Positions 32,396 to 50,099 are shown, counted from the stretch's first letter. The stretch is DNA of 64,000 bases from Vulcanimicrobiota bacterium (GCA_963812135.1 CAWETU010000001.1:704001-768000); one strand, 5' to 3'. Program-made: numbers and translations. The notes: generated by a model from the letters alone, not told the origin.

Positions 32396-32685
32396 TGACT
32401 GCCCCCATCGAGCCGGTCGCTGCCCTTCGACCCGCGCTGCTGATCGAACGCGTTGACGCTCCTACGAATGAAGGCGGCGGCAGTCCCTTCGCGGCGCTCA
32501 TCGAGGACGCGTCCGCTTCGTTGCGCCGCGCCGACGACGCCGCAGCGCTGGTGGCGTCGGGTCACGGCAACGTCGCGACGGCGGCGGTCGCCCGCGCGCA
32601 TGCCGATGTCGCCCTCGAGGTCGCCGCCATCACGGCCTCGCGCGTCAGCGGCGCGATCGCGACGCTGTTGCAAACGCAGGTGTGA
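32395..32685 (+). CDS. fliE: Flagellar hook-basal body protein FliE-like
   Basis: 96 aa; FAALIEDA...ADVALEVA...LLQTQV; sits between flgC and fliF. Confidence 0.75.
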   Translation: MTAPIEPVAALRPALLIERVDAPTNEGGGSPFAALIEDASASLRRADDAAALVASGHGNVATAAVARAHADVALEVAAITASRVSGAIATLLQTQV

Positions 32686-32688
32686 TCC

Positions 32689-34098: not shown

Positions 34099-34666
34099 AT
34101 TCGGCCCGCTGCGTGTGCGCCGCTATCGTGCGCCCGCACAGTCGTTGGAATCGGCGCAGAGCGCGGCGCCCGAATCGCCGCCGCAGGTGGGTTCGCCGGA
34201 TGGCGAGGATGCGGCGCCAGTGGTCGCAGCGGACTCGCCGGCGTCGTGCGCGCTCGCGACAAGCGCCGCACAGCCAGCCGCAAATGAAGTTCCGGATCAT
34301 AGCGACATTCCCGCGGCTTACGAACCTCCCTCATATGATGAAGAGCGCTTCGAAGCCGCCGTCCGCGAGGAGGCGATCCGTTTCGCATCCATCGCCGTTG
34401 CTCGCGCCCTGCGCGTCGCACTGGTCGACGATGCCACGCTCGCCAGGTACGTGGACGACGCGTTGCGCGCGTGTGGCCGTGGCGGACGAGCGACCGTCCG
34501 GCTACATCCGCGCGACGCGCCCGCCTATCGGCCCACCGGCGATCTCGAGGTCGTCAGCGACGATTCGTGTGAAGCGGGCCAAGTGGTGATCGAACTTCCC
34601 ACAGGTTCGCTCGGCGCGACCGCCGACGAACGTGCTGCGTTGCTGGTCAGAGCGGTCGCGTGCTGA
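34088..34666 (+). CDS. fliH: FliH/SctL-like protein
   Basis: Disordered N-terminus, then AVARAL...VRLHPRD...DDSCEAGQVVIELPTGSL; between fliF and fliI. Confidence 0.65.
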   Translation: MSAEFGPLRVRRYRAPAQSLESAQSAAPESPPQVGSPDGEDAAPVVAADSPASCALATSAAQPAANEVPDHSDIPAAYEPPSYDEERFEAAVREEAIRFASIAVARALRVALVDDATLARYVDDALRACGRGGRATVRLHPRDAPAYRPTGDLEVVSDDSCEAGQVVIELPTGSLGATADERAALLVRAVAC

Positions 34667-35994
34667 CCGCGCGCCCTTTTCCAGTCACATATCCAGAGGC
34701 CGATGGCTTCGTCCGCCGCGGTACCGTGCAACGCGTCACGGCCGAGACGATCGACGTGCGGTGCCCTGCGCTGACGTCCGGAGACGCAGTGTTGATCGAA
34801 GGGTTCAGCGATGCGAGTCCGGTGATCGCAGAGGTCACGATGACGGGCGTCGACGGCGCTCGTTGTGCCACGCTCGAGCACGGCGCGCGGATTCGCGTCG
34901 GCGCAAACGTGTTGTGTGCTGGGGGACGAGTGGGAGCGTACGCCGGCGAGGTCTTGCTCGGTCGCGCGCTCGATGCGTGGGGGCGCGATCTCGACCACGC
35001 GCCCGTTAGGGGCCGCATCGTCGTGCCGCTCGAATCGCGACCGCTCGACGCGCGGACGCGGGGGCCGATCGAGAGCCCGCTGCGCACCGGCATCGCAGCC
35101 ATCGACGCCCTCACGACGATCGGCTATGGCCAGCGGGTCGCCTTGACTGCCGGCGCCGGCGTCGGCAAGACGGCGCTCTTGCGCCGCATCGTCGAGCATG
35201 CCGAGGCGGATGCGCGCGTCATCGCGCTCGTCGGCGAACGGGGCCGAGAGGCGGCCGAGACCGTGCGGCGGCTGCGCGCCCTTCCGGAGTGGCCGCGCAC
35301 CTCGCTGTATTGCGCCACATCCGAAACCAGCGCGATCGAACGGTTGACGGCGGCACGCAGCGCGACCGCCCAAGCAGAGTGGCTGTGCCGCAACGGACGA
35401 CACGTGCTGCTGGTGATCGACTCGCTCACACGCGTCGCGAACGCGTGGCGCGAGTTAGCGCTCGCTGCTGGCGAACCGATGGGTCCGCGGGGCTATCCGG
35501 CGTCGCTCGGCAGCACGCTTGCGCGACTCGTCGAGCGCGCCGGCGCCCGCCCCCAAGGATCGATCACCGCGGTGTACGCCGTCTTGGTCGAGGGCGACGA
35601 CCCGTTTGAGCCGGTCACCGACGCGCTGCGCGCGCTGCTCGACGGCCATATCGAGCTTTCGCGCACGCACGCGCAGGCCGGTCGATTTCCGGCGATCGAC
35701 GCGTTGCGTAGCCTGAGCCGCTCGATGCCCGATGTCGTAAGCCCGGCCCAGCGGGCCGACGCCGCGCTGGTCAGGCGCGCGCTTGCGACGCTGGAAAACG
35801 CTGAAGACCTGATCGCGATCGGCGCATATCGCGCGGGTTCGGACGCGTGGCTCGACGCGTGCGTCGCGTTGCGCCCGGCGATCGAATCGTTGATCTTCGA
35901 CGGACTTGGCCGTCCCGACGATCCGTTGGTCCGGCTCGCCGCGCTTGCAAACGAATTGCGACGCACCCCTGGACCAGTGCCGGCAGTCGCGTGA
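34660..35994 (+). CDS. fliI: FliI/YscN family export ATPase
   Basis: TGIAAIDAL, GQR, GAGVGKT, GERGRE, IDSLTR, GEP..RGYP, VLVEGDD, LDGHIELSR, FPAID. Confidence 0.92.
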   Translation: MLTARPFPVTYPEADGFVRRGTVQRVTAETIDVRCPALTSGDAVLIEGFSDASPVIAEVTMTGVDGARCATLEHGARIRVGANVLCAGGRVGAYAGEVLLGRALDAWGRDLDHAPVRGRIVVPLESRPLDARTRGPIESPLRTGIAAIDALTTIGYGQRVALTAGAGVGKTALLRRIVEHAEADARVIALVGERGREAAETVRRLRALPEWPRTSLYCATSETSAIERLTAARSATAQAEWLCRNGRHVLLVIDSLTRVANAWRELALAAGEPMGPRGYPASLGSTLARLVERAGARPQGSITAVYAVLVEGDDPFEPVTDALRALLDGHIELSRTHAQAGRFPAIDALRSLSRSMPDVVSPAQRADAALVRRALATLENAEDLIAIGAYRAGSDAWLDACVALRPAIESLIFDGLGRPDDPLVRLAALANELRRTPGPVPAVA

Positions 35995-36831: not shown

Positions 36832-36853
36832 TATCGAGAATGATTCTCGATAA
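36831..36853. promoter_or_regulatory. Zur/Fur-family operator, perfect 11-1-11 palindrome
   Basis: TTATCGAGAAT-G-ATTCTCGATAA, overlapping the end of the -10 and the znuA start codon. Confidence 0.85.
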
Positions 36854-37787
36854 GCATAAGACGCGACGCGCCCTCAGGTCCGCAGTGGCACTCACCATCG
36901 CTGTGTTGACCGGCTGCACCTCGCAACAACCGACTAGCGCACCGCAACCCACGACGACTCCGTCGTCCAGCCAACGCCTCCAAGTCGCCGCGACGATCTC
37001 GACGCTCGCAGCGCTCGTCAAGGCGGTCGGCGGCGACAAGGTCGACGTCGTGAGCATTGTGCCGATCGGCGTCTCGCCCGAAACGTATGACCCCTCGCCT
37101 CGCGACCTCATCGCCGTTGCAAACGCCCATATCATTTTCAAGAACGGCGCCGGACTCGAGATCTGGCTCGACAAGATGCTGCGCGCCGTCGCCAAGCCGA
37201 GCACCAAAGTCGTTGTGCTTTCGGACGGCCTGCCGGTCGCGGGCGCCAAAGGCCCGGGCGAACCAGGCAATCCGCATCTTTGGCTCGATCCGACATACGC
37301 GCAGGTGTACGTCCATAAGATCGCCGCGGCGCTGAGCGAGGTCGATCCCGCGAATGCGGCCTACTATAGCGCGCGCGAGAAAGCCGAGCAGAAGCAGTTG
37401 GCGCAGCTCGACGCGTGGATCAAGCAGCGCATCGCCACCATTCCGCCGGCGAACCGCACGATGCTGGCGTTCCACGACGCGTGGTACTATTTCGATCGCC
37501 GCTACGGCATCCGCGACGTCGGCGCCATCGAGCAGTCGCCCGGCCAATCGCCGTCCGCCGCGTATCTCGCGGCGCTGATCGCGCAAGCGCGCGCGAGCGG
37601 CACCCGCGCGGTGTTCGCTGAACCGCAGTTCTCCCCTAAACTTGCCCAACAGCTCGCCGCCAGCGCCGGCATTAAGACGGTGACGAACCTCTACGATGAC
37701 ACGCTCGGCACGACGCCGGAGCTACAGACATACGACGGGATGTTGCGTTACGATGTCGATACTATCGTCAAGGCATTGACATCATGA
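36840..37787 (+). CDS. znuA: Metal (Zn/Mn) ABC transporter substrate-binding lipoprotein
   Basis: Lipobox LTGC, NGAGLE, NPHLWLDP, FHDAWYYF, VFAEPQ. Confidence 0.88.
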   Translation: MILDKHKTRRALRSAVALTIAVLTGCTSQQPTSAPQPTTTPSSSQRLQVAATISTLAALVKAVGGDKVDVVSIVPIGVSPETYDPSPRDLIAVANAHIIFKNGAGLEIWLDKMLRAVAKPSTKVVVLSDGLPVAGAKGPGEPGNPHLWLDPTYAQVYVHKIAAALSEVDPANAAYYSAREKAEQKQLAQLDAWIKQRIATIPPANRTMLAFHDAWYYFDRRYGIRDVGAIEQSPGQSPSAAYLAALIAQARASGTRAVFAEPQFSPKLAQQLAASAGIKTVTNLYDDTLGTTPELQTYDGMLRYDVDTIVKALTS

Positions 37788-38695
37788 GCGAGCATGAAAC
37801 CGTGCACAACCACACCCACGTCGATCCGGCGACGCCGACCGCGCCGGCCGATCATAGCCATGCGGTCACCGCCACCAAGCCGCATCTGCATCAGCATCGC
37901 GATCATCGGCCGCCGGAGCCGCGCGATATATCGGTCGGCGCGAACAGCGCGATCGACTTGGAAGGCGTGTGCGCGGGCTACTTCGGCCGCGACGTGCTCG
38001 ACGAGGTCAGCCTCGATGTCAAGCGCGGCGAGTTCGTCGGGATCATCGGCCCCAACGGCGCCGGCAAATCGACGCTGCTCAAGGTCATCGCAGGACTGCT
38101 CGAGCCGCAGTGCGGCATCGTGCTCGTCCTCGGCAAGCCGCCCGGCCACGGCCAACCTATAGGCTACGTGCCGCAGACCGAAGCGGTGAATTGGACATTC
38201 CCGGTCAGCGTTCTCGACGTCGTGCTCATGGGTGTGTACGGCAAGCTCGGCCTGTTCCACCGGCCCGGCGAAACTGAGCACCGCGCCGCGTTGAGAGCGC
38301 TTGAGGAAGTCGGCATGCGCGAGTTTGCGGACGAGCAGATCGGCGAGCTCTCCGGTGGACAGCAGCAACGCGTTTTTGTGGCGCGCTCGCTGGTGCAAAA
38401 CCCCGAGCTGCTGCTGTTGGACGAGCCGATCTCCGGCGTCGACGCGACGAGCCAGCACGCGATCTTCACCTTGCTCGAGGAGCGCCAGAAAAGAGGCCAG
38501 ACGATCGTGGCCACAACGCACGACCTGTCGTGCGTGGCCACGTGGTTCGACAAAGTGCTGTGCCTCAACCATCGCGTGATCGCCTATGGGCCGCCGGACC
38601 AGGTGCTCACCGATGCGACGCTGTCCGCGACCTTCGGTAGTCACGTGTTGGTCATCCCCGACGCGCAGGCCGCAGTCCGGTCGGCGCAGCTCTAA
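37784..38695 (+). CDS. znuC: Metal ABC transporter ATPase with a His-rich N-terminal extension
   Basis: [32 protein letters not shown]. Confidence 0.9.
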
Positions 38696-38698
38696 GGC

Positions 38699-39565
38699 GT
38701 GGATTGGCTGCTCGTCCCCTTGCAACAGGACTTCATGGTGCGCGCGCTCATCGCGTCGACGCTGATCGGCTTGGTCTGCAGCGTCGTCGGCGTCTACGTC
38801 GTGCTGCGCAACCTCGCGTTCATCGGCGACGGCATCGCGCACGCGTCATTCGCCGGTATTGTGATCGCGTATCTTCTCAAGTTCAATCTCTACGTCGGCG
38901 GACTCATCGTGGCGGTGCTCACGGCGCTTGGTATCGGCGCGATCAGCCGGCGTTCGGAGGTTTCGGTGGACACGGCGATCGGCGTCATGTTCACGTCGGT
39001 TTTCGCGTTGGGCGTGCTTCTCATGTCGAGGGCGCGCAACTACATCGTCGATCTGCAAGATTTCTTGTTCGGAAATGTGCTCGGCGTCGACCGGACGGAC
39101 ATCATCCTTGTCGCGAGTCTGACGTGCGGTGTCCTCATCATCATCTTCGCGCTGTACAAAGAGCTGCTGTTCGCGTCGTTTGATCCGCTCATGGCGCAGG
39201 CGAGCGGCCTGCCGGTGACCGCGCTGAGCAACTTGCTGCTCGTCATCCTCGGCGTGACCATCATCGTGTCGCTGCAGGCTGCCGGCATCGTGCTCGTCGC
39301 AGCGCTGTTGGTGACGCCGGCGGCGGCTGCGTTCCAGTTGACCAACCGTTTCGGCGCGATGATGGCGACGTCGGCGGCGATCGGCGTCGGCTCGGCGATC
39401 GTCGGTCTGTACGCGTCGTACTATCTCAACGCGGCGTCGGGCTCGACGATCGTGCTCACCGCGACGTTGTGCTTCTTCGCGGCGATGGCGTTCTCGCCCA
39501 AGCGCCGCTCGTTGCTCACCCAAGTGCTTGAGGCGCGCCGTCGTGCGCGATCGGCGACCCCATGA
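38699..39565 (+). CDS. znuB: Metal ABC transporter permease
   Basis: FIGDGIAHASFAG, LFGNVL, SFDP, GIVLVAALLVTPAAAA. Confidence 0.9.
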   Translation: MDWLLVPLQQDFMVRALIASTLIGLVCSVVGVYVVLRNLAFIGDGIAHASFAGIVIAYLLKFNLYVGGLIVAVLTALGIGAISRRSEVSVDTAIGVMFTSVFALGVLLMSRARNYIVDLQDFLFGNVLGVDRTDIILVASLTCGVLIIIFALYKELLFASFDPLMAQASGLPVTALSNLLLVILGVTIIVSLQAAGIVLVAALLVTPAAAAFQLTNRFGAMMATSAAIGVGSAIVGLYASYYLNAASGSTIVLTATLCFFAAMAFSPKRRSLLTQVLEARRRARSATP

Positions 39566-39999
39566 GCGCGAAACCGCGCGAGCGCGACGCCCTCGACGAG
39601 CGCTTGGCGCGCAGCGGCGGGCGTATGACCACGCAGCGCAAGACGATCGTCGCCGAATTCGAGCGGCTGCGCCGCTACGTGACCCCGCAAGAACTGCATC
39701 GCAGGCTCGCCGACAGCCGCCCGCGCATCGCGCTGGCCACTGTCTACCGGACGCTTGAAATGCTCGAGGGCATCGGCGCTGCGTCGCGCGCGCCGCGCGC
39801 GCATGGTGAAGCGGCATATCTGTTCTGCGCGCCGACGCACCATCACCACGCCGTCTGCACCCAATGCGGCAAGGTCGATGACGTGCCGTGCGGCTCGGTC
39901 GAACGCTTCGCGCGCACGCTTGCGAAAGGTCTGCGCTTCCAGCTGCGCCAGCACAGCCTCGAGTTCTACGGCGTGTGCGCCCGCTGCTCCGGCGCCTAG
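39562..39999 (+). CDS. zur: Fur-family regulator, probably Zur
   Basis: RMTTQR, ATVYRTL, HHHHAVCTQCG, FYGVCARC; last gene of the znu cluster. Confidence 0.82.
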   Translation: MSAKPRERDALDERLARSGGRMTTQRKTIVAEFERLRRYVTPQELHRRLADSRPRIALATVYRTLEMLEGIGAASRAPRAHGEAAYLFCAPTHHHHAVCTQCGKVDDVPCGSVERFARTLAKGLRFQLRQHSLEFYGVCARCSGA

Positions 40000-40069
40000 C
40001 GACTTTTCCGCAACGCCCCAGCGCCCGCACGCCAGGCCCGGCGCCGCGCCGACGCGAATGACGCGCGCC

Positions 40070-40741
40070 ATGCCCCAAAAGCCATCAGCGCCGCCCGTCG
40101 ATCGGACGGGCCGTATAGCGACGCTCGCGTTCGGCGTGTTCGTCATCATCGGCATCATCGCGCTCATCGCCTACACGATGACGCATCAGAACGCGCCCGC
40201 CGCGGTCAGTCCGGCGGCGACGCAGACCGCGACACCGGTGCCGCGGCCGAGCGAAACGCCGGGAACCCACTTCAAATCGCAAGGCCACCCCGGTCACGAC
40301 CAGAAGGACCCGAGCAAGATGGGCAGCTTCCGTTACAATTCGGATCCGCCCACGTCCGGGATGCATTTCGAAAAGTTTACCGACGCCCTCATCAACACGA
40401 AACCGCTGCCGAAGTACATACAAGTGCATGTGCTCGAGCACGGCAACGTGTTGCTGCAGTACAATTGCACCTGTCCGGACATAGCCGGCGCGTTGGCGCA
40501 GATCGCGTCGAGTTACAACAACCGCCAACTACCCGCGGGCAGCGCTGAGTTCACTCCTGATATCGTGCAAACGATCGAAGAGAATGGCTCTGGCGTGATC
40601 GTCGCGCCCTACCCGGGCATGAAATCCAAGATTGCGCTCACCGCGTGGACTCGGCTGCAGACCTTTGACGCGATCGATCAGGCGAGCATGGTGCGCTTCA
40701 TCAACGCCTACTTGACCAATCAGGAGAACGCCGCTCAGTGA
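40070..40741 (+). CDS. DUF3105-like membrane-anchored protein, paralog 1
   Basis: TM; SQGH, YNSDPPTSGMH, VHVLEHGNVLLQYNCTC, IALTAW. Confidence 0.78.
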   Translation: MPQKPSAPPVDRTGRIATLAFGVFVIIGIIALIAYTMTHQNAPAAVSPAATQTATPVPRPSETPGTHFKSQGHPGHDQKDPSKMGSFRYNSDPPTSGMHFEKFTDALINTKPLPKYIQVHVLEHGNVLLQYNCTCPDIAGALAQIASSYNNRQLPAGSAEFTPDIVQTIEENGSGVIVAPYPGMKSKIALTAWTRLQTFDAIDQASMVRFINAYLTNQENAAQ

Positions 40742-41373
40742 AACTGACGAACAGCATCGTGCCTGCCGCGGCGATCGCAGCGCTCGTCCTGGCCGGCTGC
40801 GCCAAGGGCGACAGCAACACGAGCGCCGCCGCATCGCCTTCCGCCGCCTCGCTCGCGGCAGCCCCGAGCTCCTCGCCGCAGACGATCGCGCTGACGTTTT
40901 TGGGCACACACTACCCCTCGCAAGGCCACCGGCATTTCGACCCGGGCGAGTCGACCAAGTTCGCCTACAACTCGGACCCGCCGACGTCCGGCCCCCACTT
41001 GGAGATGTTCAGCTCTTCGTTCAACAACGCGACGCCGCTGCCGGCGTTCGTCCAAGCCCACCTGCTCGAGCACGGCAATATCTTGCTGCAATACAACTGC
41101 AACTGCCCCGATATCGCCGGCGCGCTTTATCAGATCGCGTACAAGTACGACAGCCGGCTCATCCCGCCGGACCAGATGCAGGCGACGCCGGCCCAAGTGC
41201 AGGCCGCCGAAGAGGCCGGTGAGTCGGTCGTCGTGGCGCCGTATCCGGGGATGAAGCACAAGATCGCGCTGACGGCGTGGACCCGCCTCGGCACGCTCGA
41301 CTCGATCGATCAGGCCAAGATCGAATCGTTCATCAACGCGTACCTGCACAACCAAGCGAACACCGCGCAATAA
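40738..41373 (+). CDS. DUF3105-like lipoprotein, paralog 2
   Basis: Lipobox LAGC; SQGHRH, YNSDPPTSGPH, AHLLEHGNILLQYNCNC, IALTAW. Confidence 0.8.
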   Translation: MKLTNSIVPAAAIAALVLAGCAKGDSNTSAAASPSAASLAAAPSSSPQTIALTFLGTHYPSQGHRHFDPGESTKFAYNSDPPTSGPHLEMFSSSFNNATPLPAFVQAHLLEHGNILLQYNCNCPDIAGALYQIAYKYDSRLIPPDQMQATPAQVQAAEEAGESVVVAPYPGMKHKIALTAWTRLGTLDSIDQAKIESFINAYLHNQANTAQ

Positions 41374-41379
41374 CCACTG

Positions 41380-43656
41380 TCACGGAATCGGTGCCGTGAT
41401 CTGCGCGGTGAATTGGAAACCGCGCGCGTATTGCGTCGTGTTGAACCCGTTGTTGAGTTTGATCAGGTACTGGTTGTTCGTGATATTCGTGGCCTGCAGT
41501 TGATAGCCGAAGCGACCCGGCGCTGCGAGACGGCCGACCGACGCATTGAGCTCCCAGTGCGCGGGCAACCGGCCAGGTCCGTTTTCGAACTGGACCGGGA
41601 AGCCGCTGCCGTAAATCGTCTGGAGACTCGCGTACATCGACCGGTCGGGTGAGAAGCGCCACGTGTATCCGGTGTTGAGCGTGTTGGTTTGATCATGATC
41701 CTCTGGCGCATATCCGTTCGCGCCTTGCAGCTGATCCGGCGAGAACAAGAACGTGCCGCCCGAGATGCCGGATGCGACTGATTGCGACAATCCGTACGAG
41801 ACGAAGTACGTATTGCCGTTGTCCTGCGTGCCCGTCACGCTCAGCTCGATTCCCTGAGCCCGGCCGGCGGTAGAGTTGAAGATCGTGAAGATCGGCGTCG
41901 AGCCGATCTGCGTCGTGTCGAGCACGTTGGCGACCGCACGCGCCCAGTAGTTCACGTACCACTTCGACCGCGGGTCGATTTGATGGGAAAAGCCGAACTC
42001 GTAGATCGAGTCGGTCTCGGGCTTGAGATCGTATACCGGCAAGCCTGAACCCCCGCTGACCACTACCGCGGAACGTCGCGTGTCTTCGAGCGCGGGCGCG
42101 GCATAAAGCCGCCCGTAGTACGCGTGGACGACGTCTTTAGGGTTGAGCGTCTGATAGTCGAGCTCGATGCGCGGGCTCACCTGATTGCCATCGGTGAAAC
42201 CGGTCGAGCGGTCGTAGCGCAGGCCGACATTGGCGGTGAAGGCCGATGACAAGATGCGCTTATCCTCGGCATAGATGCCGAAGTTCGTGCCGTTCTGCGA
42301 TACGTTGTCGTCGAAGCGCTGCAACGTCATGCTCGAGTCGATGAATTGGATGTTGAAGAGGCTCGTGAAGTTCTCGGTATAGGCCGTGAAGCCCATCTTG
42401 ACGTTGTCGCGCGGGTCGGTGCGGAACCACGTCGTCGTCAGGCCGTAATACGTCCCAACGCGGTCTTGGAACGTCGACGTCGCCGCGGTGCCGGCGAGAT
42501 CGTTGGGCGGATCGGGGAAGTACCTTACTTGGCCGCGGTTGTACCACGGCGCGATCTCAAGATAGCCTTGGCCGTCGCCGCTGAGCCGGTTGAAGATGAG
42601 GTTCGCGTATTGGCCGTTCTCATACTGATTGTCGTCAGTTCCGGGCGGCACGAAGCTCGGGCTGGCCGGGTTCGTGTCGATCGGGATCTGGAACGTGGCG
42701 AACAGGTTCGAGAAATGCAGCGCCCATGAGTCGCGCTTGTCAGGGTCGTACGTCAGCCGCAAGAATTCGTTCGATTGGCTCGCGGCGTCGTGTACCGGGT
42801 TGATCGTCGGCGTGTCCAGCCCGCGATCGGAACGCGTGAGGCCGAGCGAGACATAGCCCTTGAACGCATCGCCGCCAAAGGATTCGCTCAGCTGCCCCTG
42901 GGCGGACGCATAGTTCCCGCCGGTCAACACGATGTCGCCGCCGTTTCCGGACGGGCGCCTGGTGATGATGTTCACGACGCCGCCCTGGCGGCTGCCGCCG
43001 AACTCGGCTGGGAACGAGCCCGTGTAGACCTCGAGCGAACCGATGTCGCGGGGATCGAGGACCTCGGCGAACGACGATGAGGTCGTCTGCGGAACGGGCA
43101 CGCCGTCGATCTGATAGGCCACGCCGTGAAAACCGCGCACGACAGGCTCATCGTACGAGAAGGGCACGACGCCTGGCACCGTCGCCGTGACGTTGGCGAG
43201 TTTGAAATTGCTCGGCAGCGTCCGCACGAACGACGGCGTGAGGACGGCGACGCTTACCGGATGTCCAGCCTTGGCGACGGTGACGACACTCCCGAGCGTT
43301 TTCTTCGTGAGATGGAAATCGAGCACCGTGGAGCTGCCGGTGCTTACGGTCACCACGCCGCTTTGCGTGCCCAGAGCAGGCGCGCTTGCCGTGACGGTGT
43401 ACGTGTCGAACACGACGCGAGCGAACACGTAGCGTCCGTCGCTGCGCGTGACGGTATGGTCGGTCGTGCCTTCGCCGCTCTTGATGATCACCGTCGCATT
43501 CGCGACAGGCTTATCGTTGTCGTCGAAGACCGTGCCTTGGATCGCTCCATACGTGCTGGCGGCAGCGGGAGTTCCCACACACAGCAGCGCCGGGATGATG
43601 AGAAGAGAGAGCGCGACAAGCGCGCGCGCACGCGAATAAACAGAAAGAATACGCAA
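41380..43656 (-). CDS. TonB-dependent-receptor-like outer-membrane protein 1, with N-terminal carboxypeptidase-regulatory-like domain
   Basis: Signal peptide; GTVFD...PVANATV; plug (YQIDGVPV, VYTGSFPAEFGG...GVVNIIT); barrel motifs GLRYD, SPRI, PETD. TTG 43656 chosen as start because of a GGAGG RBS. Confidence 0.85.
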   Translation of the reverse strand: MRILSVYSRARALVALSLLIIPALLCVGTPAAASTYGAIQGTVFDDNDKPVANATVIIKSGEGTTDHTVTRSDGRYVFARVVFDTYTVTASAPALGTQSGVVTVSTGSSTVLDFHLTKKTLGSVVTVAKAGHPVSVAVLTPSFVRTLPSNFKLANVTATVPGVVPFSYDEPVVRGFHGVAYQIDGVPVPQTTSSSFAEVLDPRDIGSLEVYTGSFPAEFGGSRQGGVVNIITRRPSGNGGDIVLTGGNYASAQGQLSESFGGDAFKGYVSLGLTRSDRGLDTPTINPVHDAASQSNEFLRLTYDPDKRDSWALHFSNLFATFQIPIDTNPASPSFVPPGTDDNQYENGQYANLIFNRLSGDGQGYLEIAPWYNRGQVRYFPDPPNDLAGTAATSTFQDRVGTYYGLTTTWFRTDPRDNVKMGFTAYTENFTSLFNIQFIDSSMTLQRFDDNVSQNGTNFGIYAEDKRILSSAFTANVGLRYDRSTGFTDGNQVSPRIELDYQTLNPKDVVHAYYGRLYAAPALEDTRRSAVVVSGGSGLPVYDLKPETDSIYEFGFSHQIDPRSKWYVNYWARAVANVLDTTQIGSTPIFTIFNSTAGRAQGIELSVTGTQDNGNTYFVSYGLSQSVASGISGGTFLFSPDQLQGANGYAPEDHDQTNTLNTGYTWRFSPDRSMYASLQTIYGSGFPVQFENGPGRLPAHWELNASVGRLAAPGRFGYQLQATNITNNQYLIKLNNGFNTTQYARGFQFTAQITAPIP

Positions 43657-43713
43657 GGAAATGGCCTCCACAAGGGTGTGGCGGCCAAAGGGCGGGATGC
43701 CGGTTTTGGCCGC

Positions 43714-44386
43714 CTATGCTACAAGGGCAGCGAACACCGGAGGAGGACGGCTGGCGATGTGGCGCGCCAGTAGGGGCGGAGCGGGCGACGCTGCGGCAAG
43801 CGCGAGCGTGCGCAACTGCGGCGCGCAGTGCGGGCGGACCGGTTGCGACAGCCGGTCGATCGCGACCAGCACGAAGCGCGCGATGGCGGCGACGCTTTCA
43901 CACGCCGCACGCGCGAAGGCGCGCAGCGCGAGCGCGAGCGTCGCGCCGATGATGATGTGGACGAACGGGGCGCTGAAGTGGCCGGGTCCGAAAATCGCGC
44001 CCGAGCCCAAAACCGCCGTACGAAGAAAGCGCTTGTTCAGACAGCTCTCCGACGACGAGCGACATGAGCTGTAAACCGACGACCGTCGCGATCAGACGGC
44101 TGGGCGAAATCTCCCGCACTGCATCGAGCGCCGGCAACAGCCACTCGGCATCCTGGAACTTGTCGCGGGCGCTTTCGATCACGCCACGCGCGATGAGATA
44201 ACCGGCGATGAGCAGCAGGCCTAGTGCAAGGTAGGCAAAGGGCGACTGCAGCGAGTGGGTGTAATGCGCGGGGACGCCGCCGAAGAGATGCGCGTTTTCG
44301 ATGTTCAACTGCGTAGCATGGCCGAGCAGGGAGGCGCTCAACGCAACCGCCCCGACGAGCAACCAGCACACGTCCCTTCGAGCCAT
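43714..44386 (-). CDS. Multi-TM His-containing leader membrane protein ending in RPPP; split by a +1 frameshift at about 44001
   Basis: ORFs 43898..44386 and 43714..44010 join (…GGFGL-GAIFGPGHF…) if one base is removed from CCC 44000-44002. The product resembles 48589..49200 (GLQL..E motif; C-terminal RPPP). Confidence 0.7.
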
Positions 44387-44477
44387 CTTGATGAATACGG
44401 CCCGTTCAACCGCTGGACCTTTGCCGCAGCGCGGAAACGGGTTCAGGTGATTCTCAGATTGCCACGTCCAAGCGCGC

Positions 44478-45116
44478 CTACGCGCCCGCTTTATGCGCGG
44501 CCGCCAGCAACTGTGATTCCGGCATCTCGCCGCTGCCGGCGAACGTGATCGTCCCCTTGGCGTTCACGATGTAGATCGTCGGAAAGCCGTTGAGCCCCCA
44601 CGCTTGCGCGACCTTGAGATCGGCATCGAACGCCGACGGCCACGTGACGTTGAAGTACTTGTCGAACGAGTCGACGTCCGTCTGATTCTCCGGGATCGGA
44701 TTGCCCTGCGTCGAGCCCGCGGCGTACGGCGATCCCGTCACGGAAAGCATGCCGAAGCGCGACTCCGGCAGCTTGGCGCGCAGCGATCGCAAGACTCCGG
44801 TCATGCGCTGGCAATGCGGGCACCACGTCGCGAACAGTTCGAGCATGTACGGCTTGCCGGCAAACGTCGCGTTGGTGATCGGACCGAGCATCGTCTGCAC
44901 GGAGAAGGGCGGCGCCTGCTGGCCGGCTTTGTGCGGGGGCGGCACCGACGGGATCGCGTTGGGCGCGACGGCTGCGCTCGGCAGTTTGTGCATCTGGGTC
45001 CATGCGTAGACGACGATCGCCACCACGACGAGGACGCCGACGATCAGCGATACAATGGTGCCGGGCGCCGGTCCAGATCGCGCGCCGGAAGGTCGTGACG
45101 GTTGTCTCGCGCTCAA
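44478..45116 (-). CDS. Membrane-anchored TlpA/thioredoxin-like disulfide reductase
   Basis: TM; LFATWCPHC; GFPTIYIVN. Confidence 0.88.
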   Translation of the reverse strand: MSARQPSRPSGARSGPAPGTIVSLIVGVLVVVAIVVYAWTQMHKLPSAAVAPNAIPSVPPPHKAGQQAPPFSVQTMLGPITNATFAGKPYMLELFATWCPHCQRMTGVLRSLRAKLPESRFGMLSVTGSPYAAGSTQGNPIPENQTDVDSFDKYFNVTWPSAFDADLKVAQAWGLNGFPTIYIVNAKGTITFAGSGEMPESQLLAAAHKAGA

Positions 45117-45536
45117 TTCTTACCTCTTGCCGCTCGCATCATCGTCGGCTTGGTGTTCCTCGCCGCCGGTGTTTTGAAAGTGGGTCACGCGCCGGATCTC
45201 GGTTCCACCATCGTCGCGTTCCGGCTCGACTTGCCGCCCGCGTTCGTCGGTTTCGCGGCCATCGCTTTGCCGCTGTTTGAAATCGTGCTAGGCGTCTACC
45301 TGCTGCTCGGCTGGCAGCTGCGCATCGTCTCGATCGCGGCTTTCATCGTCTTGTTGATCTTCATCGCCGCGCTTGCCTCGGTCGTGATGCGCGGCATCCC
45401 GACCCCGTGCGGCTGCTTCGGGCCGGCCGAAACGGATCCGGTCACATGGTGGACGATCGCGCGCGATGGCGCCGCCATCATCCCGGCGGCTTATCTGGTG
45501 TGGTGGTCATGGCGCCGTGCGCCCGCGACGCCGTGA
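45102..45536 (+). CDS. MauE/DoxX family redox-associated membrane protein
   Basis: ARIIVGLVFLAAGVLK, LPLFEIVLG, CGCFG, RD. Confidence 0.82.
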   Translation: MSRAQFLPLAARIIVGLVFLAAGVLKVGHAPDLGSTIVAFRLDLPPAFVGFAAIALPLFEIVLGVYLLLGWQLRIVSIAAFIVLLIFIAALASVVMRGIPTPCGCFGPAETDPVTWWTIARDGAAIIPAAYLVWWSWRRAPATP

Positions 45537-45566
45537 CCATCCCAATGAGAACGATTGAGCTTAGCG

Positions 45567-46025
45567 CTATTTGACCATGTTCATGACGTCTGGGCCGATG
45601 CCGTGCACTTCGACGACCGTCTCGCCTTTGCACATCGCATAGTGATGCAATCCGGCGGGCAGCTCGACGAATGCGCCAGCAGGTAGCGTCACCATCTTCG
45701 CTGGATCCATCTTGTCGCCGATGCCGGCCATGAACGTGCCGCTCAGCACGGTGACCTGCTCAGATTGCGGATGCGAGTGCGGCGGGAACTTGAAGCCATC
45801 CTCGCATTTGTAGCGCGCGGCGTACTGGCCACCCGATTTAGTCGGATCGCCGAAGAGCACTGCGTACGAAACACCGGTCATCCCCTTGACGGGCTGCCAG
45901 TTCACGGCGCCCGGTTGGACGATGATGGGCGCCATAGGATTGGGCATGGCGATGGAGCTCGACGCGAGTCCGACGGCCGCCACCGCGAACACGACCGCAA
46001 ACGCGAGAACCTTACCCTTGTGCAT
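45567..46025 (-). CDS. Exported cupin domain protein
   Basis: Signal peptide; PPHSHPQSEQVTVLSG, HHYA. Confidence 0.82.
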   Translation of the reverse strand: MHKGKVLAFAVVFAVAAVGLASSSIAMPNPMAPIIVQPGAVNWQPVKGMTGVSYAVLFGDPTKSGGQYAARYKCEDGFKFPPHSHPQSEQVTVLSGTFMAGIGDKMDPAKMVTLPAGAFVELPAGLHHYAMCKGETVVEVHGIGPDVMNMVK

Positions 46026-46113
46026 GAGACCTCCTCACAAGCGCGGGTTAGATGTTCGGGCGGCATCTTGCACGTCGCTCGCAAGGCTACCCATTCGCGC
46101 CGGGACATCAAGT

Positions 46114-48502
46114 TCACTGGCCCGTGCCTAGCTTGATGCCAACATAGAAACGCACGGCCCGGCGCGTAATGGTTGCCCTGCGCGTTGAAGTACGTGATCC
46201 AGTACTGATGGTTGAGAAGGTTGTTGACGCGCACCCACGCCTGCGCGTTGGGCCCGATCGAGAAGCCTTTCTCCGCCGAGAAGATCGTGTGCGGGGTGTA
46301 CTTGCAAAAGCCCGGGGTGTCCGGCGGACAGGCCGCCGACGAAAGTCCGCTGCCGTACTCCTCGTCCATCGAGAACCAACCGCCGCGCGTGTCGTTGAAC
46401 ACGACGCCCGACGTCGCGCCATAACGCTGCTCGTGGTCTGCCGGCGTCCAATCGGTCGGTGACCCGAAGCACGGCGCGAGCAATTGCGTCTCGCAACCCT
46501 TGTTGACCGAATACGTGTGGTTGAAGCTCACGTAGAACCGGCCGTTATGGACGAGATTCTGCTGATAGTACGCGGTCTGCGTCGCGATGCGCCCGAGCGT
46601 ATAGTTGATGTCCTGGTGCAGCAGCGTGACGCCGACCTGCGTGTCGTCGATGAGATCCGTCGCGTTTTTCTGCATGATGCGCAGTCCTAGATCGCCGGGC
46701 CCGAGCGGCAGATGCCCGCCGATCTCGTAATCCGAATCGCGCTGCGGCTTGAGATCGAATTGCGCGATCGTCGGCTGCAGCGGCAGATTGAGCAAGAATG
46801 CGGCTCCCGGCGAGACGTTCTCGAATGAGAACGGCGTGAAGAACCGACCGTAGTACACGTACGCGCTTGCCCGTGGCGAGAAATACCGCGTGAACTTCAC
46901 GCGCGGGCTGAACTGCGTGAATCCCTGGTCGAACTGCGTCGAGAAGACCTGGAACGCGGTCCATCGCACGCCGTAGTCCAGCTCGTAGGCCGAGCCCATC
47001 AGCCAGCTGTCTTGGATGTATGCGACCTCGATGTGGCCGACGTTGGGCGAGTTATCGATCACCGGAAACGAGGCGAGCGGCGTCGATGGTGCGAGCAACG
47101 GCGCCAAATAGTTGCCCGGTTGCAGTGTGATGTCGTAGTACTTGGGCACGTTGGACATGTCGTACGACGCCCCCCAACGGATCGCGTGGACGCGGCTGCT
47201 CAACGCGTAGTCGAAGTTCAACAGGTAGTCGTTCGACGTGCGGTGATCGGCTAACGTGTTGGCGCACGTCACGTTGCTATAGTTCGGGATGGTGAGCGCG
47301 TTAAAGCAATCCGTCGGCATCCCGCCGTTGGCGGCGTTGAGCGCGAAGCCGTAGATCCAATCGTTGAGCGGATCGCCGAAGTCGCGGATCTGCGAGCGCC
47401 GATAGCCGCCGCCGAACGACATCGCGCCGTGGTCGCCGATCGCCTGCCGGAACTGGAGCGCGGCGAACGTATCGTCTTGGGTCTCGTTATCGTCCGAGCT
47501 CGCCGGCTGTCCGTCGTCGGTGGCCACCGGGATCTGGAACGTGCGATACGAGTGCGACAGCGTGAGATTCACGAAATTGCTGCCGCCGTTCCCATAAGGC
47601 AGCGTGTAGCGCACGAACTGATTGGCGTCACTCGCCTGGTTGTGCAACGATACGGCTTGGGGAGGATCCAGACCGCGCCCCGTGCTGCCGTTTTGGACTG
47701 CAAGCACGACCGAGCCATTGCCCACGCGATCGTGATAACCGAGCGTGCCGTCGAACGTGGAGAACGAACCCCCGTCAGCCTCGAACGTCGCACCCGGTCG
47801 CTCAACGTGGATGCCGGTTCGCGTGCTGATGTTGAGCACGGTGGCGAAGCGCTCGCCGTATTGCGCGGGATACGCGCCTTGGATCACGTCGACGAAGGCC
47901 GCATCGCCCGGGTTGAACTCGGAGCCGACGACACGATTGAGCGCTTGCGGCAGCGCGAGACCGTCAACGATATAGTTGATGTCGCCGTGATCGCCGTTGA
48001 TGTGCACGACGCCGTTGGCGCCGCGCGCTGCGCCTGGAAGCTGGATGAGCATTTCCGGAAAGCTGCCGCTAGCCGGCGTGCGCTCGAGGACAGTCGAGTT
48101 GAGGACCAGATCTGTGCCCGATCCGCGGATCGGCGCGCTGCGCACAGCGGACGCGGTGACGCTGCCGATCGTCTTGACGCTGATCTGGAGCGTGACGTCG
48201 GCGCCGCTCGCGGGCAGATCTACGGCGAGCGTGCCGCTGCCGCCGCTCGACGTGGCGATCAACGTGTACGAGCCAGGCGAGAGCGAGCCGAAACGGAAAC
48301 GACCTTCGGACGTCGTGCGAGCGGTCTGGACCACGTTGTTGCCTGTGGCCGTGACCGTCGCGTTCGCGACCGGCTTGCCGCTGCTCAAAACGGTGCCCGT
48401 CAGATACGCATTTGCCGCCATGCTCGGCAGCGGCGCCACGAGCGCGAGCACGATGGCGACAAACGATAGCGCCCGCACTGCGCGGGAAATAACCATGAAC
48501 AT
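46114..48502 (-). CDS. TonB-dependent-receptor-like outer-membrane protein 2; apparent +1 frameshift at about 46149 near the 3' end
   Basis: Paralog of 41380..43656 (PVANATV, YIVDG, GAYPAQYG, SPRV, DLIDDTQVG, DHEQ). Removing one base of AAA 46148-46150 gives a normal end APGRAFYVGIKLGTGQ* at 46114. Confidence 0.85.
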
Positions 48503-48528
48503 TTGAATTCCCTCTCGACAGATTAGAT

Positions 48529-48582
48529 GTAACGGTCGAGTTTAATCGACCGAACGAGTGTAGCGGTCGAATTTATCGACCG
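48529..48582 (+). repeat. Tandem pair of REP-like palindromes (copies 4 and 5)
   Basis: GTAA-CGGTCGA-gtttaa-TCGACCG and GTAG-CGGTCGA-attta-TCGACCG, 31-bp period. Confidence 0.8.
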
Positions 48583-48588
48583 GCACGC

Positions 48589-49200
48589 TCAAGCTATCGA
48601 GAGGGACGGAGGCGGGCGGTTGTAGAGCTGGCTGAACCAGATGAAATGCGGCAGGCCGAGCGGCGAGCGATCGCGCGATGCGACCAGCGCTGCGCCACGC
48701 GGCGTTGGCGTGACGAAGAAGGCGGCGATGGCGGCGGCGATCGAGGGAAGTCTGCGTCCGATCGCCCACGACGCGAGCCCCATGAAGATGACGGTCAGCG
48801 CCGCGCCGATAATGCCTGCGGCGATGTCGTGTCCGCAGAAGGGGCAACCTTCGCCGATCTGCGTCAGCAGCCCCAACGAAAGCTGCAGCCCCGCGGTGAG
48901 CGCGAAGAACGGACCGCGGCCGCGAAACGGCAGCGTCTCAAGACCGAGGTGCAGCTCACGTTTGAAATCTCTGCCGCCCGCGGATCTGCGCCACAGCGCG
49001 AGTGTCTGATGAAGGGCGACGCCGAACGCGAGCAGCCCCCCGATTCCCAGGTAGAGATGCTTTGGCGAGAGCGCGACGCTGTCTGCGTCGCTGCCCATCG
49101 CGAAAAACTCAGAAGCCAGGTGCGCGACGATGCTGCCGAGCACGACCAGTGCCAAATAGATCGGCACGAGTTGGTGTGGCGTGGAAGCCCGAGGTCGCAT
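48589..49200 (-). CDS. Multi-TM leader membrane protein with CxxC/His residues and C-terminal RPPP (start 49200 or 49227)
   Basis: Four hydrophobic segments, VAHLASE, KHLYL, GEGCPFCGHD, C-terminus LYNRPPPSLSIA. Confidence 0.75.
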   Translation of the reverse strand: MRPRASTPHQLVPIYLALVVLGSIVAHLASEFFAMGSDADSVALSPKHLYLGIGGLLAFGVALHQTLALWRRSAGGRDFKRELHLGLETLPFRGRGPFFALTAGLQLSLGLLTQIGEGCPFCGHDIAAGIIGAALTVIFMGLASWAIGRRLPSIAAAIAAFFVTPTPRGAALVASRDRSPLGLPHFIWFSQLYNRPPPSLSIA

Positions 49201-49241
49201 ACTCAATATATCGTCAGCCGGCAACATTTCTTGTGCCTGGC

Positions 49242-49264
49242 TTATTGAGAATCAATCGCAATAA
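49242..49264. promoter_or_regulatory. Second Zur/Fur-family operator
   Basis: TTATTGAGAAT-C-AATCGCAATAA; 9 of 11 positions symmetric; closely similar to 36831-36853. Confidence 0.75.
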
Positions 49265-49295
49265 GTCCTGCCGGCTTCTCGCTCCGAAGGTACGA

Positions 49296-50099
49296 CTACT
49301 TGGCGGGCCTCGGCGTTTCAGCTGCGGCGCCGAGCAGGCCCGGTTCCAGCCACATCCCGCCGTCTGCGACGAGGACCGCGCCGTTGACGTACGACGCGTC
49401 GTCGGAGAGCAAAAACGCCGCGGCAAGCGCCACTTCTTCGGGCGTCTCGAGGCGGCCGAGAGGCACCCGGCTTGCGATGCGGTTGCGGATCTCTTCCGTC
49501 GGAAAAAGTTTTTCGGCTGAACCCGGCGTGTTGACGACTCCAGGGCACAGCGCGTTCGTGCGGATGCCGTAACGACCCCACTCGACCGCCAGCGTTTGCG
49601 TCAGCGACACAACGCCTGCTTTTGCGGCGGCGGAATGGATCGTGCCCGGTCCGCCGGTCCACGCATAACTAGCGACGATGTTGAGGATGGAACCGCCGCG
49701 CCCCGCCGCGATCATCGCTTTGCCGGCCGCGCGCGCGCAATAAAACGTGCCGTTGAGCACGATGTTGATCACCGCATTCCAGCCATTGGGCGAGAGCTCT
49801 TCCGCGCGCACGATGAAGTTGCCGGCCGCGTTGTTGACAAGCGCGTCGATGCGGCCGTATTTGGCGACGACGCCGTCGACGAGCACTTGCACCTGATCCG
49901 GCACGCGCACGTCGGTCTGCGCCGACTCGGCGTCACCGCCTGCGGCGCGGATGCCGTCCACGGTTTCGGCGAGCGGTTCCGGGCGCCGGCCCGCGACGAC
50001 GATGCGTCCGCCAAGTCGCGCCAAGTGTTCTGCCATCGCGCGGCCCAAACCGGTCCCGCCGCCGGTGATGACAATCGTCTTGTCCTTGAAGTCAGGCAT
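49296..50099 (-). CDS. SDR oxidoreductase, 2,4-dienoyl-CoA reductase-like
   Basis: ITGGGTGLG, NNAAGNF, LSPNGWNAV, HSAAAKAG, DGG. Confidence 0.88.
   Translation of the reverse strand: MPDFKDKTIVITGGGTGLGRAMAEHLARLGGRIVVAGRRPEPLAETVDGIRAAGGDAESAQTDVRVPDQVQVLVDGVVAKYGRIDALVNNAAGNFIVRAEELSPNGWNAVINIVLNGTFYCARAAGKAMIAAGRGGSILNIVASYAWTGGPGTIHSAAAKAGVVSLTQTLAVEWGRYGIRTNALCPGVVNTPGSAEKLFPTEEIRNRIASRVPLGRLETPEEVALAAAFLLSDDASYVNGAVLVADGGMWLEPGLLGAAAETPRPAK

Follow-up and report, generated by a model that had tools for sequence, protein, structure and literature searches.

Introduction

Most of what is known so far about metal-sensing arrest peptides comes from CutF and CruR, two copper systems of Proteobacteria; a 2025 survey of RAPP and RGPP motifs has extended the idea. 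Here we analyse a stretch of 64,000 nucleotides (nt) from a Vulcanimicrobiota bacterium (GCA_963812135.1, CAWETU010000001.1:704001-768000), which we call the window and whose positions we count from its first letter. In it, a gene for a membrane protein (leader 1), which ends shortly after codons for Arg-Pro-Pro-Pro (RPPP), is followed by the gene of a TonB-dependent receptor (receptor 1); a paralogous pair (leader 2 and receptor 2) lies nearby. An earlier note, made from the sequence alone, had read both pairs as attenuators in which the leader controls its receptor. We find this reading partly supported, more firmly at the level of the protein family than for the copy in the window. Comparative sequence analysis and predicted RNA folds incline us, if only slightly, towards regarding these modules as CutF/CruR-like switches, in which a stalled ribosome would control the translation of a metal receptor.

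The closest described systems are summarized here from portions of the cited sources. CutF of Rhodobacter capsulatus (cutFOG, DUF2946) has a CxxxC motif and the C-terminus PEPEGPPPRL, that is, a stall motif containing PPP a few codons before the stop; mRNA structure shields the next gene's Shine-Dalgarno (SD) sequence until a stalled ribosome opens it; and the residues that bind metal are exposed in the periplasm before the chain has left the ribosome, with the involvement of elongation factor P (EF-P) (PMC9973294; bioRxiv 10.1101/2025.02.05.636593). Our leaders resemble CutF in the kind and position of the motif; the shielding is predicted for them as well, and the periplasmic exposure and the role of EF-P would be alike. 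CutF, however, is small, is exported through Sec, and has CxxxC and a cleavable signal peptide, whereas the leaders form a family of 200-245 residues with four helices, and leader 1 has no Cys motif. The gene after cutF encodes a multicopper oxidase rather than a TonB-dependent receptor. Gly precedes the prolines of CutF (GPPP) where the leader family has Arg, there is no DUF2946 match among the leaders, and the segment complementary to the SD (the anti-SD) is supplied, in the leader family, by the stall and tail codons.

CruR (Bp2923) of Bordetella pertussis combines CXXC with RAPP and precedes the TonB-dependent transporter gene bfrG; its motif is needed for downstream expression (PMC9426467), and its arrest has been toeprinted (PMC12992588). 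Like our leaders, CruR is encoded immediately ahead of the gene of a TonB-dependent receptor, at a locus for metal uptake, and has R-x-P-P near its C-terminus, and its CXXC recurs in leader 2 (PMC9426467). In the parts of these papers used here, CruR acts by Rho-dependent termination, across a 162-nt spacer and independently of EF-P, whereas the leader modules have spacers of 33-107 nt and a masked SD. The CXXC-to-RAPP spacing of CruR is 45 +/- 2, compared with mostly 61-99 from the conserved Glu to RPPP in the leader family; CruR has about 145 amino acids (aa), is single-pass or exported, and belongs to a copper context, unlike the ZnuABC/Fur context of the leaders. Of the features by which the DUF2946/CruR-CutF group is recognized, leader 1 has the stall motif near the C-terminus, and it lacks the Pfam match, a CXXC or CxxxC, the small size and the fixed spacing.

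The same survey reports that upstream open reading frames with RAPP or RGPP are over-represented before TonB-dependent receptors, and that four-helix RAPP/RGPP proteins of Streptomyces, encoded upstream of metal-related genes, arrest in vitro (PMC12992588). By description, which is our only basis for the comparison, Streptomyces lividans SLIV_18480, SLIV_27375 and SLIV_33595/33605 share with our leaders four predicted helices, clusters of His and Cys, an arrest motif close to the C-terminal end, and downstream genes that are related to metals or encode thioredoxin (PMC12992588). They differ in having RAPP or RGPP in place of RPPP and in belonging to Actinomycetota; the string 'RPPP' is absent from the text of that paper, and the parts used here do not name a TonB-dependent receptor downstream (PMC12992588).

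A wider group of monitors of Sec and YidC (SecM, MifM, VemP, ApcA, ApdA, ApdP and the RQH family) likewise arrests at a C-terminal RAGP, RAPP or RAPG a few codons before the stop, frees a downstream SD by means of the stalled ribosome, and couples arrest to the membrane through an N-terminal membrane or export segment (PMC10987492, as far as the sections used here go). These monitors control secA, secDF or yidC and sense the localization machinery; the leader modules do not stand upstream of any of these genes, and what they would control is an outer-membrane receptor gene of a metal island. The details of SecM, MifM and VemP are general background. RPPP itself is reported, in the portion of the work drawn on here, as the XPPP context that stalls ribosomes most strongly, both in vitro and in an E. 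coli efp mutant, and as under-represented in E. coli, with 2 occurrences against 6 expected (Starosta et al. 2014, PMC4176338). The XPPP stalls studied there are incidental motifs in ordinary proteins, whereas the RPPP of the leaders is conserved at the C-terminus and coupled to a downstream SD.

The kind of system is known. What is new is a protein family without DUF2946, the RPPP motif, the phylum, the non-copper context, the presence of two paralogous modules, and the use of stall and tail codons as the anti-SD. A literature search found no paper on this leader family; the supplementary lists of the two surveys (PMC10987492, PMC12992588) lay outside that search. The same design would occur, on a different scaffold and beside ZnuABC and Fur genes, in a soil phylum that is almost uncultured. 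RPPP is missed by motif searches for RAPP and RGPP, and searches for arrest leaders should include RPPP as well as full-size membrane proteins. The 38 modules studied below, together with 18 of a second family, are natural variants with covarying partners and offer material on the co-evolution of stall codons and RNA masking; the copy in the window matters less and may itself be broken.

Conservation of RPPP and its codons

We aligned 19 proteins of the leader-1 type (type 1, alignment A2), 10 of the leader-2 type (type 2, A3) and a mixed set of 42 sequences (A7). RPPP near the stop is unvarying in all three (19/19, 10/10 and 42/42). Searched against 1.84 billion proteins, the A7 profile matches 353 representative clusters at E<=0.001, and in 129 of the best 150 of these a C-terminal RPPP is followed by 1-13 further residues; it appears as NRPPP in 90 and as SRPPP in 24. 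The remaining 21 of the best 150 are mostly truncated, and in that position two have NRAPP and two LPPP. NRAPP is a proven arrest motif, and its substitution for RPPP in two clusters supports the view that RPPP arrests the ribosome. The natural swaps of NRAPP or LPPP for NRPPP, two clusters each, are P0214, P0268, P0155 and P0183.

For the tests of codons, duplexes and folding we used 38 non-redundant modules (f1). Taken together, their RPPP codons include each of the six for Arg and each of the four for Pro, which indicates that selection acts on the peptide. At the same time, the rare codon CCT is used for the first Pro in 13/38 modules (34%) and for the second in 19/38 (50%), compared with a background of 10%, and the PPP codons of 27/38 contain CCTCC, which is complementary to GGAGG. 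Judged from these sequences, RPPP is selected both as peptide and as RNA.

Predicted pairing between leader tail and receptor SD

We paired a segment of 40 nt, counted from the first Pro codon, with the last 22 nt ahead of the receptor start, and compared cognate partners with permuted ones. In these permutation tests, all of which are inflated by kinship among the modules, the mean duplex energy is -18.56 kcal/mol for cognate partners and -14.29 +/- 0.43 for permuted ones, and 0/5000 permutations reach the cognate value. The result holds for type 1 alone (-18.25 vs -15.67 +/- 0.52, 0/5000), for type 2 alone (-18.95 vs -14.08 +/- 0.70, 0/5000), and for the 18 modules of the second family (-13.48 vs -11.21 +/- 0.55, 0/5000).

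For type 2 the pairing also covaries. From 10 sequences, RNAalifold draws a 9-bp helix between the tail codons (CUCCAGUC-like) and the SD, in which 88% of cells are paired, compared with 32-42% when the partner is slid. Compensatory changes occur in 5/9 pairs, and the covariation score of 0.304 exceeds that of shuffled alignments (0.165 +/- 0.024; 0/500 shuffles).

These results bear on a different explanation, according to which RPPP and its short hydrophobic tail are a signal at the level of the protein, for instance one that marks it for degradation or binds a cytoplasmic partner, and the SD pairing is ordinary local structure. In every one of the 19 type-1 leaders the last residue is Ala and follows a hydrophobic tail; the tail in the window (43714-43737, minus strand) ends in AALVA, which recalls C-terminal degradation tags of the ssrA type, and SD pairing is common in G+C-rich RNA. 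Such an end would also fit a short-lived leader product, as has been proposed for CruR. A degron, however, has no need of Arg-Pro-Pro-Pro. Nor would a protein signal account for tails that differ in sequence between subfamilies and yet keep their complementarity to the cognate SD, for the three- to five-fold enrichment of rare CCT within the PPP codons, or for the poorer pairing of swapped partners in 5000/5000 permutations. We consider this explanation very improbable.

We then folded the modules with a partition function. The mean probability that the SD is unpaired is 0.03 in the free RNA; it rises to 0.26 when a ribosome footprint is placed on PPP, whereas placing it 30 nt upstream gives 0.04 and placing it at the stop 0.13. 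The segment from PPP to the stop is the main partner of the SD in the 38 modules, and supplies 89% of its partners on average. In the free RNA the SD is predicted in silico to be paired in all 38, with an unpaired probability below 0.3 in each. When the upstream RNA is dinucleotide-shuffled, the unpaired probability becomes 0.176, against 0.028 observed, and 36/38 modules lie below their own shuffles. In these predictions the effect is real, though background pairing in such G+C-rich RNA is high.

The leader 1-receptor 1 junction

The features of the window are collected in Table 1. The sequence observations of the earlier note (leader 1, its frameshift, RPPP and the fold) are confirmed. When the minus strand from 43760 to 43640 is folded, the minimum-energy structure reaches -44.9 kcal/mol, compared with -32.1 +/- 3.2 for shuffled sequences (z -3.97; 1/200 shuffles as good). 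In this structure CCUCC (43746-43742) pairs with GGAGG, and GGUGU (43738-43734) pairs with ACACC (43679-43675); the helix masks the SD and encloses the 10-bp hairpin (43714-43705/43689-43680). The helix between Pro/Val codons and receptor SD that the note had drawn around this hairpin is therefore present in the predicted fold, except that CCUCC lies one register 5' of the position given for it. The segment from PPP to the stop takes 98% of the pairing probability of the SD in the window's module. The hairpin is unvarying in 6/6 same-genus sequences, so that covariation neither supports nor refutes it. Read as an intrinsic terminator, it was rejected: it has no U tract, and the terminator scan was negative.

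Leader 1 and receptor 1 are separated by 57 nt. The start codon of receptor 1 is likely the TTG at 43656, which aligns with the ATG or TTG starts of the orthologs. Both the plug and the barrel that define TonB-dependent receptors are present in receptor 1 (Plug PF07715, E 9e-10; barrel PF00593, E 2e-15), along with CarboxypepD_reg (E 5e-16); a close relative of receptor 1 was not found among solved structures. A scan for sigma-70 promoters and terminators gave no promoter, and no terminator at either intergenic hairpin; a search of Rfam over 41000-50000 gave no match at E<=1.

Table 1. Position of leaders, receptors, RNA elements and neighbouring genes within the window.
Feature	Position	Strand	Remarks
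Box CGAGAATGATTCTCG	36835-36849	+	Perfect palindrome at start of ZnuA-family gene; 2 mismatches as Fur box
ZnuA-family binding protein, ABC ATPase, ABC-3 permease, Fur-family gene	36835..39999	+	Pfam
Fur-family gene	39562-39999	+	PF01475 once in genome, 39613-39969, 97.6 bits
Two tandem DUF3105 genes	after Fur-family gene, to 41373	+	Converge on receptor 1
Receptor 1	41380..43656	-	CarboxypepD_reg, Plug and TonB-dependent beta-barrel; start TTG 43656
SD-masking helix, 3' arm, ACACC-cuugu-GGAGG	43665..43679	-	GGAGG 43669-43665 is the receptor 1 SD
10-bp G+C hairpin GGCGGCCAAA...UUUGGCCGCC	43680..43714	-	Starts at G of stop codon; lacks a U tract
Leader 1, C-terminal part, frame B	43714..43999	-	GPGH, transmembrane helix 4, basic cytoplasmic tail, RPPP, 7-residue tail, stop
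SD-masking helix, 5' arm, CCUCC.C.GGUGU	43734..43746	-	Minimum-energy fold and centroid
RPPP codons CGT CCT CCT CCG	43738..43749	-	Candidate ribosome stall site; CCUCCUCC also anti-SD
Frameshift site	44000..44002	-	GGG, GG in orthologs, one extra base; DNA alignment and split high-scoring segment pairs against orthologs of G005 and G006
Leader 1, N-terminal part, frame A	44000..44386	-	Transmembrane helices 1-3 with conserved His/Glu/Tyr/Gln; alignment A2
Motif CTGAGAATCACCTGAAC	44441..44457	-	Direct-repeat-like, upstream of leader 1; left half resembles Fur-box half-site
TlpA/ResA-like membrane-anchored thiol-disulfide oxidoreductase	44478..45116	-	Directly upstream of leader 1; Redoxin E 3e-13
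MauE/DoxX membrane protein	45102-45536	+	Between modules in own genus
ChrR-type cupin	45567-46025	-	Between modules in own genus
Receptor 2	45902..48502	-	Last ~10 codons displaced by one-base insertion TT to TTT near 46150
Receptor 2 SD region UCGAGAGGGA	48509..48518	-	Perfect 10-nt complement of leader 2 tail codons
Leader 2	48589..49227	-	Paralog, 212 aa, GEGCPFCGHD, ends LYNRPPPSLSIA*
Leader 2 RPPP	48618-48607	-	RPPP and 5 residues; anti-SD UCCCUCUCGA at 48606-48597
Fur-family-type 7-1-7 palindrome TGAGAATCAATCGCA	49246..49260	+	Upstream of leader 2; 2 mismatches

The split reading frame of leader 1

In the window, leader 1 is divided between two frames of the minus strand. The open reading frame (ORF) of frame A runs from the ATG at 44386 to 43898 (162 aa) and that of frame B from 44010 to 43714 (98 aa, stop TAG at 43716-43714). 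When one G of the run at 44002-44000 is removed, the two fuse into 223 codons, a length like that of the same-genus orthologs. By DNA alignment, the junction reads CTCGGGCGCG in the window and CTC-GGCGCG in 5/5 same-genus orthologs, in each of which the gene is unbroken. This is the exact site at which the earlier note had supposed that a one-base frameshift hides a paralogous membrane protein. What it said of the protein also proves correct throughout: leader 1 adjoins receptor 1, has the shared segment (GLQL..GELSEQ) and the His motifs (GHA, NAH, HYTH, GPGHF..VH) but no CxxC, and ends in HIASRPPPVFAALVA*, with SRPPP (its RPPP at 43738-43749) and seven residues before the stop.

Frame A is 63-72% identical to the intact same-genus orthologs over residues 1-132/141. 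Against the ortholog of genome G006 it reaches 71.6%, similar to the 74.7% of frame B (residues 129-219), which carries no second lesion. Metagenome contigs from four soil runs cover 43300-43849 and 44034-44297 at 99% or above, and none spans 43979-44033. In an ORF-by-ORF tblastn comparison of about 35 kb with two same-genus genomes, a screen made noisy by spurious G+C-rich ORFs, leader 1 was the only real gene that looked split between frames. A programmed +1 frameshift at CUC-GGG-C was considered and dropped, its supporting feature being absent.

Whether the extra G is a real mutation or an error of assembly is close to an even choice. If it is real, the RPPP of leader 1 is untranslated in the window genome: ribosomes would terminate at 43900-43898, about 150 nt upstream of RPPP, the anti-SD would never be covered, and, with the insertion upstream of RPPP, the switch would be dead and receptor 1 would stay masked. 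Module 1 would then be a recently broken copy, while the mechanism may hold at the level of the family elsewhere. We give this account a serious chance, somewhat short of even. The assembly does show the extra G, which 5/5 orthologs lack; indels are not everywhere, since the sole further lesion found is the one that ends receptor 2, also within this island; and 13/14 homologs of leader 1 in the database are intact (215-224 aa), though no homolog exceeds 86% identity, so that none could serve as an intact, near-identical copy. The two lesions, however, are each a +1 insertion in a short homopolymer (GG to GGG and TT to TTT), which is the usual signature of assembly error, and frame B is open as far as the ancestral stop, is as conserved as frame A and bears no other lesion. 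The window genome, in 6 contigs, is presumably a long-read assembly.

The second lesion lies at about 46140-46160 (minus strand), where GCGTTTCTATG stands in place of the GCGTTCTATG that keeps the frame, ten codons before the expected end GRAFYVGIKLGTGQ*. Owing to this insertion, the receptor 2 ORF of 866 codons overruns into the cupin gene.

Kinship of the two modules

The window genome holds just two such modules. Between leader 2 and receptor 2, a 13-bp helix is predicted to join the tail codons to the SD region, in a fold of -54.4 kcal/mol (z -5.98; 0/200 shuffles as good). The receptors are paralogs, with 26% identity (E 2e-45). That the leaders are homologous too, as the earlier note had held, could not be seen by direct BLASTP of the leader 1 pieces against leader 2, which was insignificant (E 0.4-1.3); it emerges from comparison of the A2 and A3 profiles, which match with 88.7% probability (E 2.6e-6) over 190 columns. 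Helix 4 starts with GPGH in type 1 and with GEGCxFCGHD in type 2.

The note had further argued that a layout shared by two copies with different pairing sequences is under selection. At the level of the family we agree: RPPP is kept, the pairing is specific to the partner, and type 2 covaries. The pairing within the window's own genus, by contrast, is generic and does not covary.

A four-helix membrane protein family

By sequence, the leaders belong to an unnamed family of four-helix inner-membrane proteins of Eremiobacterota/Vulcanimicrobiota, with about 200-245 residues, whose genes immediately precede those of TonB-dependent receptors of the CarboxypepD_reg type. Queried with the N-terminal part of leader 1, 24/31 genomes of the window's own taxonomic family give matches, compared with 0/29 genomes from two other families of the class. 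The leader-2 profile, applied to 301 genomes of the phylum, finds members in 18/21 genomes of the own family, 30/207 of a second family and 0/72 of the other 19 families. These tallies (31 + 29; 301) include the unpublished genomes G010, G013 and G016; the locus L022 of G016 supplies 2 of the 38 modules and one row each in A2, A4 and A6.

Downstream of the leader lies a TonB-dependent receptor in 37/38 f1 modules. The exception is L006 (genome G003), where leader 1, the hairpin and the SD are intact and the next ORF encodes an unrelated protein of 355 residues, which may reflect gene replacement or misassembly. In the second family, all 18 fetched loci contain an ORF that ends in RPPP plus 3-8 residues (19 ORFs in total), and 18/19 of these are followed by an ORF of 769-821 codons. 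We judge the latter to be receptors of the same type from their length and C-terminal motifs, a family scan not being part of this assignment.

Searches against Pfam and NCBIfam assign neither leader to a family. A Pfam domain is absent from each of the 120 homologs listed, and the source names shown for them are 'hypothetical protein' save one 'heme exporter protein D'. DUF2946 (PF11162) has no match to the pieces of leader 1 or to leader 2 at E<=0.01, to the 19 and 10 family members at E<=10, or to the best 150 clusters at E<=0.01; its best match in the window genome, of 12.6 bits, lies elsewhere on the chromosome. Any CxxC occurs in only 26 of the best 150 clusters and in 0/19 type-1 sequences.

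In both types, the positive-inside rule predicts four hydrophobic helices with both termini in the cytoplasm, conserved His, Glu, Tyr and Gln at the periplasmic ends of helices 1-3, and a basic cytoplasmic tail of 50-70 residues that ends in (N/S)RPPP. In leader 2 numbering, conserved His, Glu and Gln include H36, E40, H57, Q115 and E126. Two AlphaFold2 models have predicted local distance difference test (pLDDT) scores of 82.8 and 81.1 and predicted template modelling scores of 0.72 and 0.69, with confident helices (21-50, 55-81, 105-125 and 135-171 in one of them) and a poor tail. A sequence search of the PDB with the family profile gave 0 matches at E<=1, and Foldseek against the PDB none at E<=0.001 (top TM-score 0.33); the best hit of a wide structure search with VIA-align (Z 7.8) is within the non-specific range for helical bundles and is not taken as a fold assignment.

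Proposed mechanism and its alternatives

The switch that we slightly favour would work as follows. A ribosome translating the leader would pause at RPPP, a pause relieved by EF-P, which the window genome encodes. The footprint of the paused ribosome would hold the anti-SD segment, freeing the SD, so that the receptor could be translated; once the ribosome moved on to the nearby stop, the helix would re-form and mask the SD again. The length of the pause would probably be set by the nascent four-helix protein, whose conserved His and Glu, joined by Cys in the paralog, are predicted on the periplasmic side and could report the availability of metal across the membrane, as CutF does for copper. 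Both the stalling and the sensing are suggested here by analogy with the described systems, and leaders with His only and leaders with CxxC may respond to different metals.

More tentatively, one may specify this further. A phylum-specific family of polytopic sensor-leaders would read a periplasmic metal, probably zinc or another divalent ion and not copper, through a His/Glu(/Cys) site that is completed only as helix 4 inserts, at the moment when the ribosome reaches RPPP; this reading would set the length of the stall that unmasks the ribosome-binding site of the receptor, and the two paralogous types, with and without Cys, would be two metal-specific co-translational switches in one cell, acting across the membrane and under a Fur-type repressor. 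We regard this fuller version as possible but doubtful.

A simpler alternative is that translation of the two genes is plainly coupled and no ligand is sensed. The end of the leader would mask the SD, so that the receptor is made only if the leader is translated; the RPPP pause would merely lengthen the time for which the SD is open, or make expression depend on general EF-P or proline status; and the four-helix protein would be a working partner in uptake, not a sensor. Masking by upstream coding RNA indeed needs no regulated arrest by itself, the leader is confidently modelled as a bundle of four helices and shows conservation from end to end, and a Fur-type box already provides metal control at the promoter. 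Left unexplained by this alternative, however, are the retention of the strongest polyproline stall motif 1-13 codons before the stop in 129/150 clusters, its replacement by RAPP in two clusters, and the parallel between the His/Glu/Cys of the periplasmic face and the sensing residues of CutF and CruR. On balance we think plain coupling unlikely, though it deserves to be kept in view.

A number of observations weigh against the stall-controlled switch, and several concern the genus of the window itself. Its duplexes range from -13.4 to -17.6 kcal/mol (six sequences), the window's -13.4 being the weakest of the 38. Own-genus tails are no better than those of other genera (-15.47 vs -15.60), and they rank only 25/60, 24/61, 34/60 and 12/30 among windows of the leader gene as partners of the SD. 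RNAalifold applied to the six same-genus sequences does not draw the CCUCC:GGAGG helix, and the ortholog L007, with the codons CCG CCC CCG, has no CCUCC and a share of 0.01 for the PPP tail among partners of its SD. Since pairing within the genus is weak and does not covary, masking there rests on the generic match of CCUCC to GGAGG and on folds of single sequences. The window's leader 1 is, moreover, frameshifted. Across all modules, 87/760 shuffles were as paired as the real RNA, in keeping with the high background of G+C-rich sequence; the modelled opening by a stalled ribosome is modest, exceeding an unpaired probability of 0.5 in only 3/38; and in only 12/38 does the tail outdo every other window of the leader gene as a partner of the SD. 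The spacing from the conserved periplasmic Glu to RPPP is loose, a point that also favours plain coupling: among 153 sequences it extends from 47 to 99 (one at 47, the rest at 61-99) in two modes. Finally, the confident four-helix bundle of the models suggests a protein with a job of its own rather than a throw-away leader.

Genomic context

From its gene content and operator-like sites, the island appears to be devoted to metal uptake under a Fur-family repressor. The genes at 36835-41373 (plus strand) look like an autoregulated Zur/Fur-znuABC unit, and the linkage to ZnuABC points to zinc as the probable metal and to a regulator that may be a 'Zur'. In three loci examined from other genera, redoxin and DUF3105 genes recur together in L076 and L077 and DUF3105 alone in L075; ABC-3 genes are found in two of the loci.

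A search of the whole window for the 7-1-7 box is weakly discriminating, in that 23/100 shuffles yield at least 2 matches, and a genome-wide search with a stricter box pattern found nothing. The box is nevertheless present in 9/9 spacers between head-to-head leader 2 and leader 1 genes of other genera (L010, L014-L021; consensus TGAGAATNATTCTCA), and in 8/9 of these 0/500 shuffles equal it. In the head-to-head genera, both modules would thus probably be under one Fur-family operator. Upstream of leader 1 in the window there is only a half-site, with 5 mismatches as a Fur box and 40/500 shuffles as good.

By eye, a direct repeat CTGA(A/G)AA-N4-CTGAA can be seen about 55-70 nt before the start of type-1 leaders in the window (44441-44457) and in L004, L005, L007, L010, L016, L020 and L021; it could be the site of a response regulator or a promoter element. 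Further along the window lie flagellar genes at 31919-35994 (plus strand; rod protein, FliF-type M-ring and FliI-type ATPase) and, at 29207-30991 (minus strand), a gene for a GAF-PAS adenylate/guanylate cyclase.

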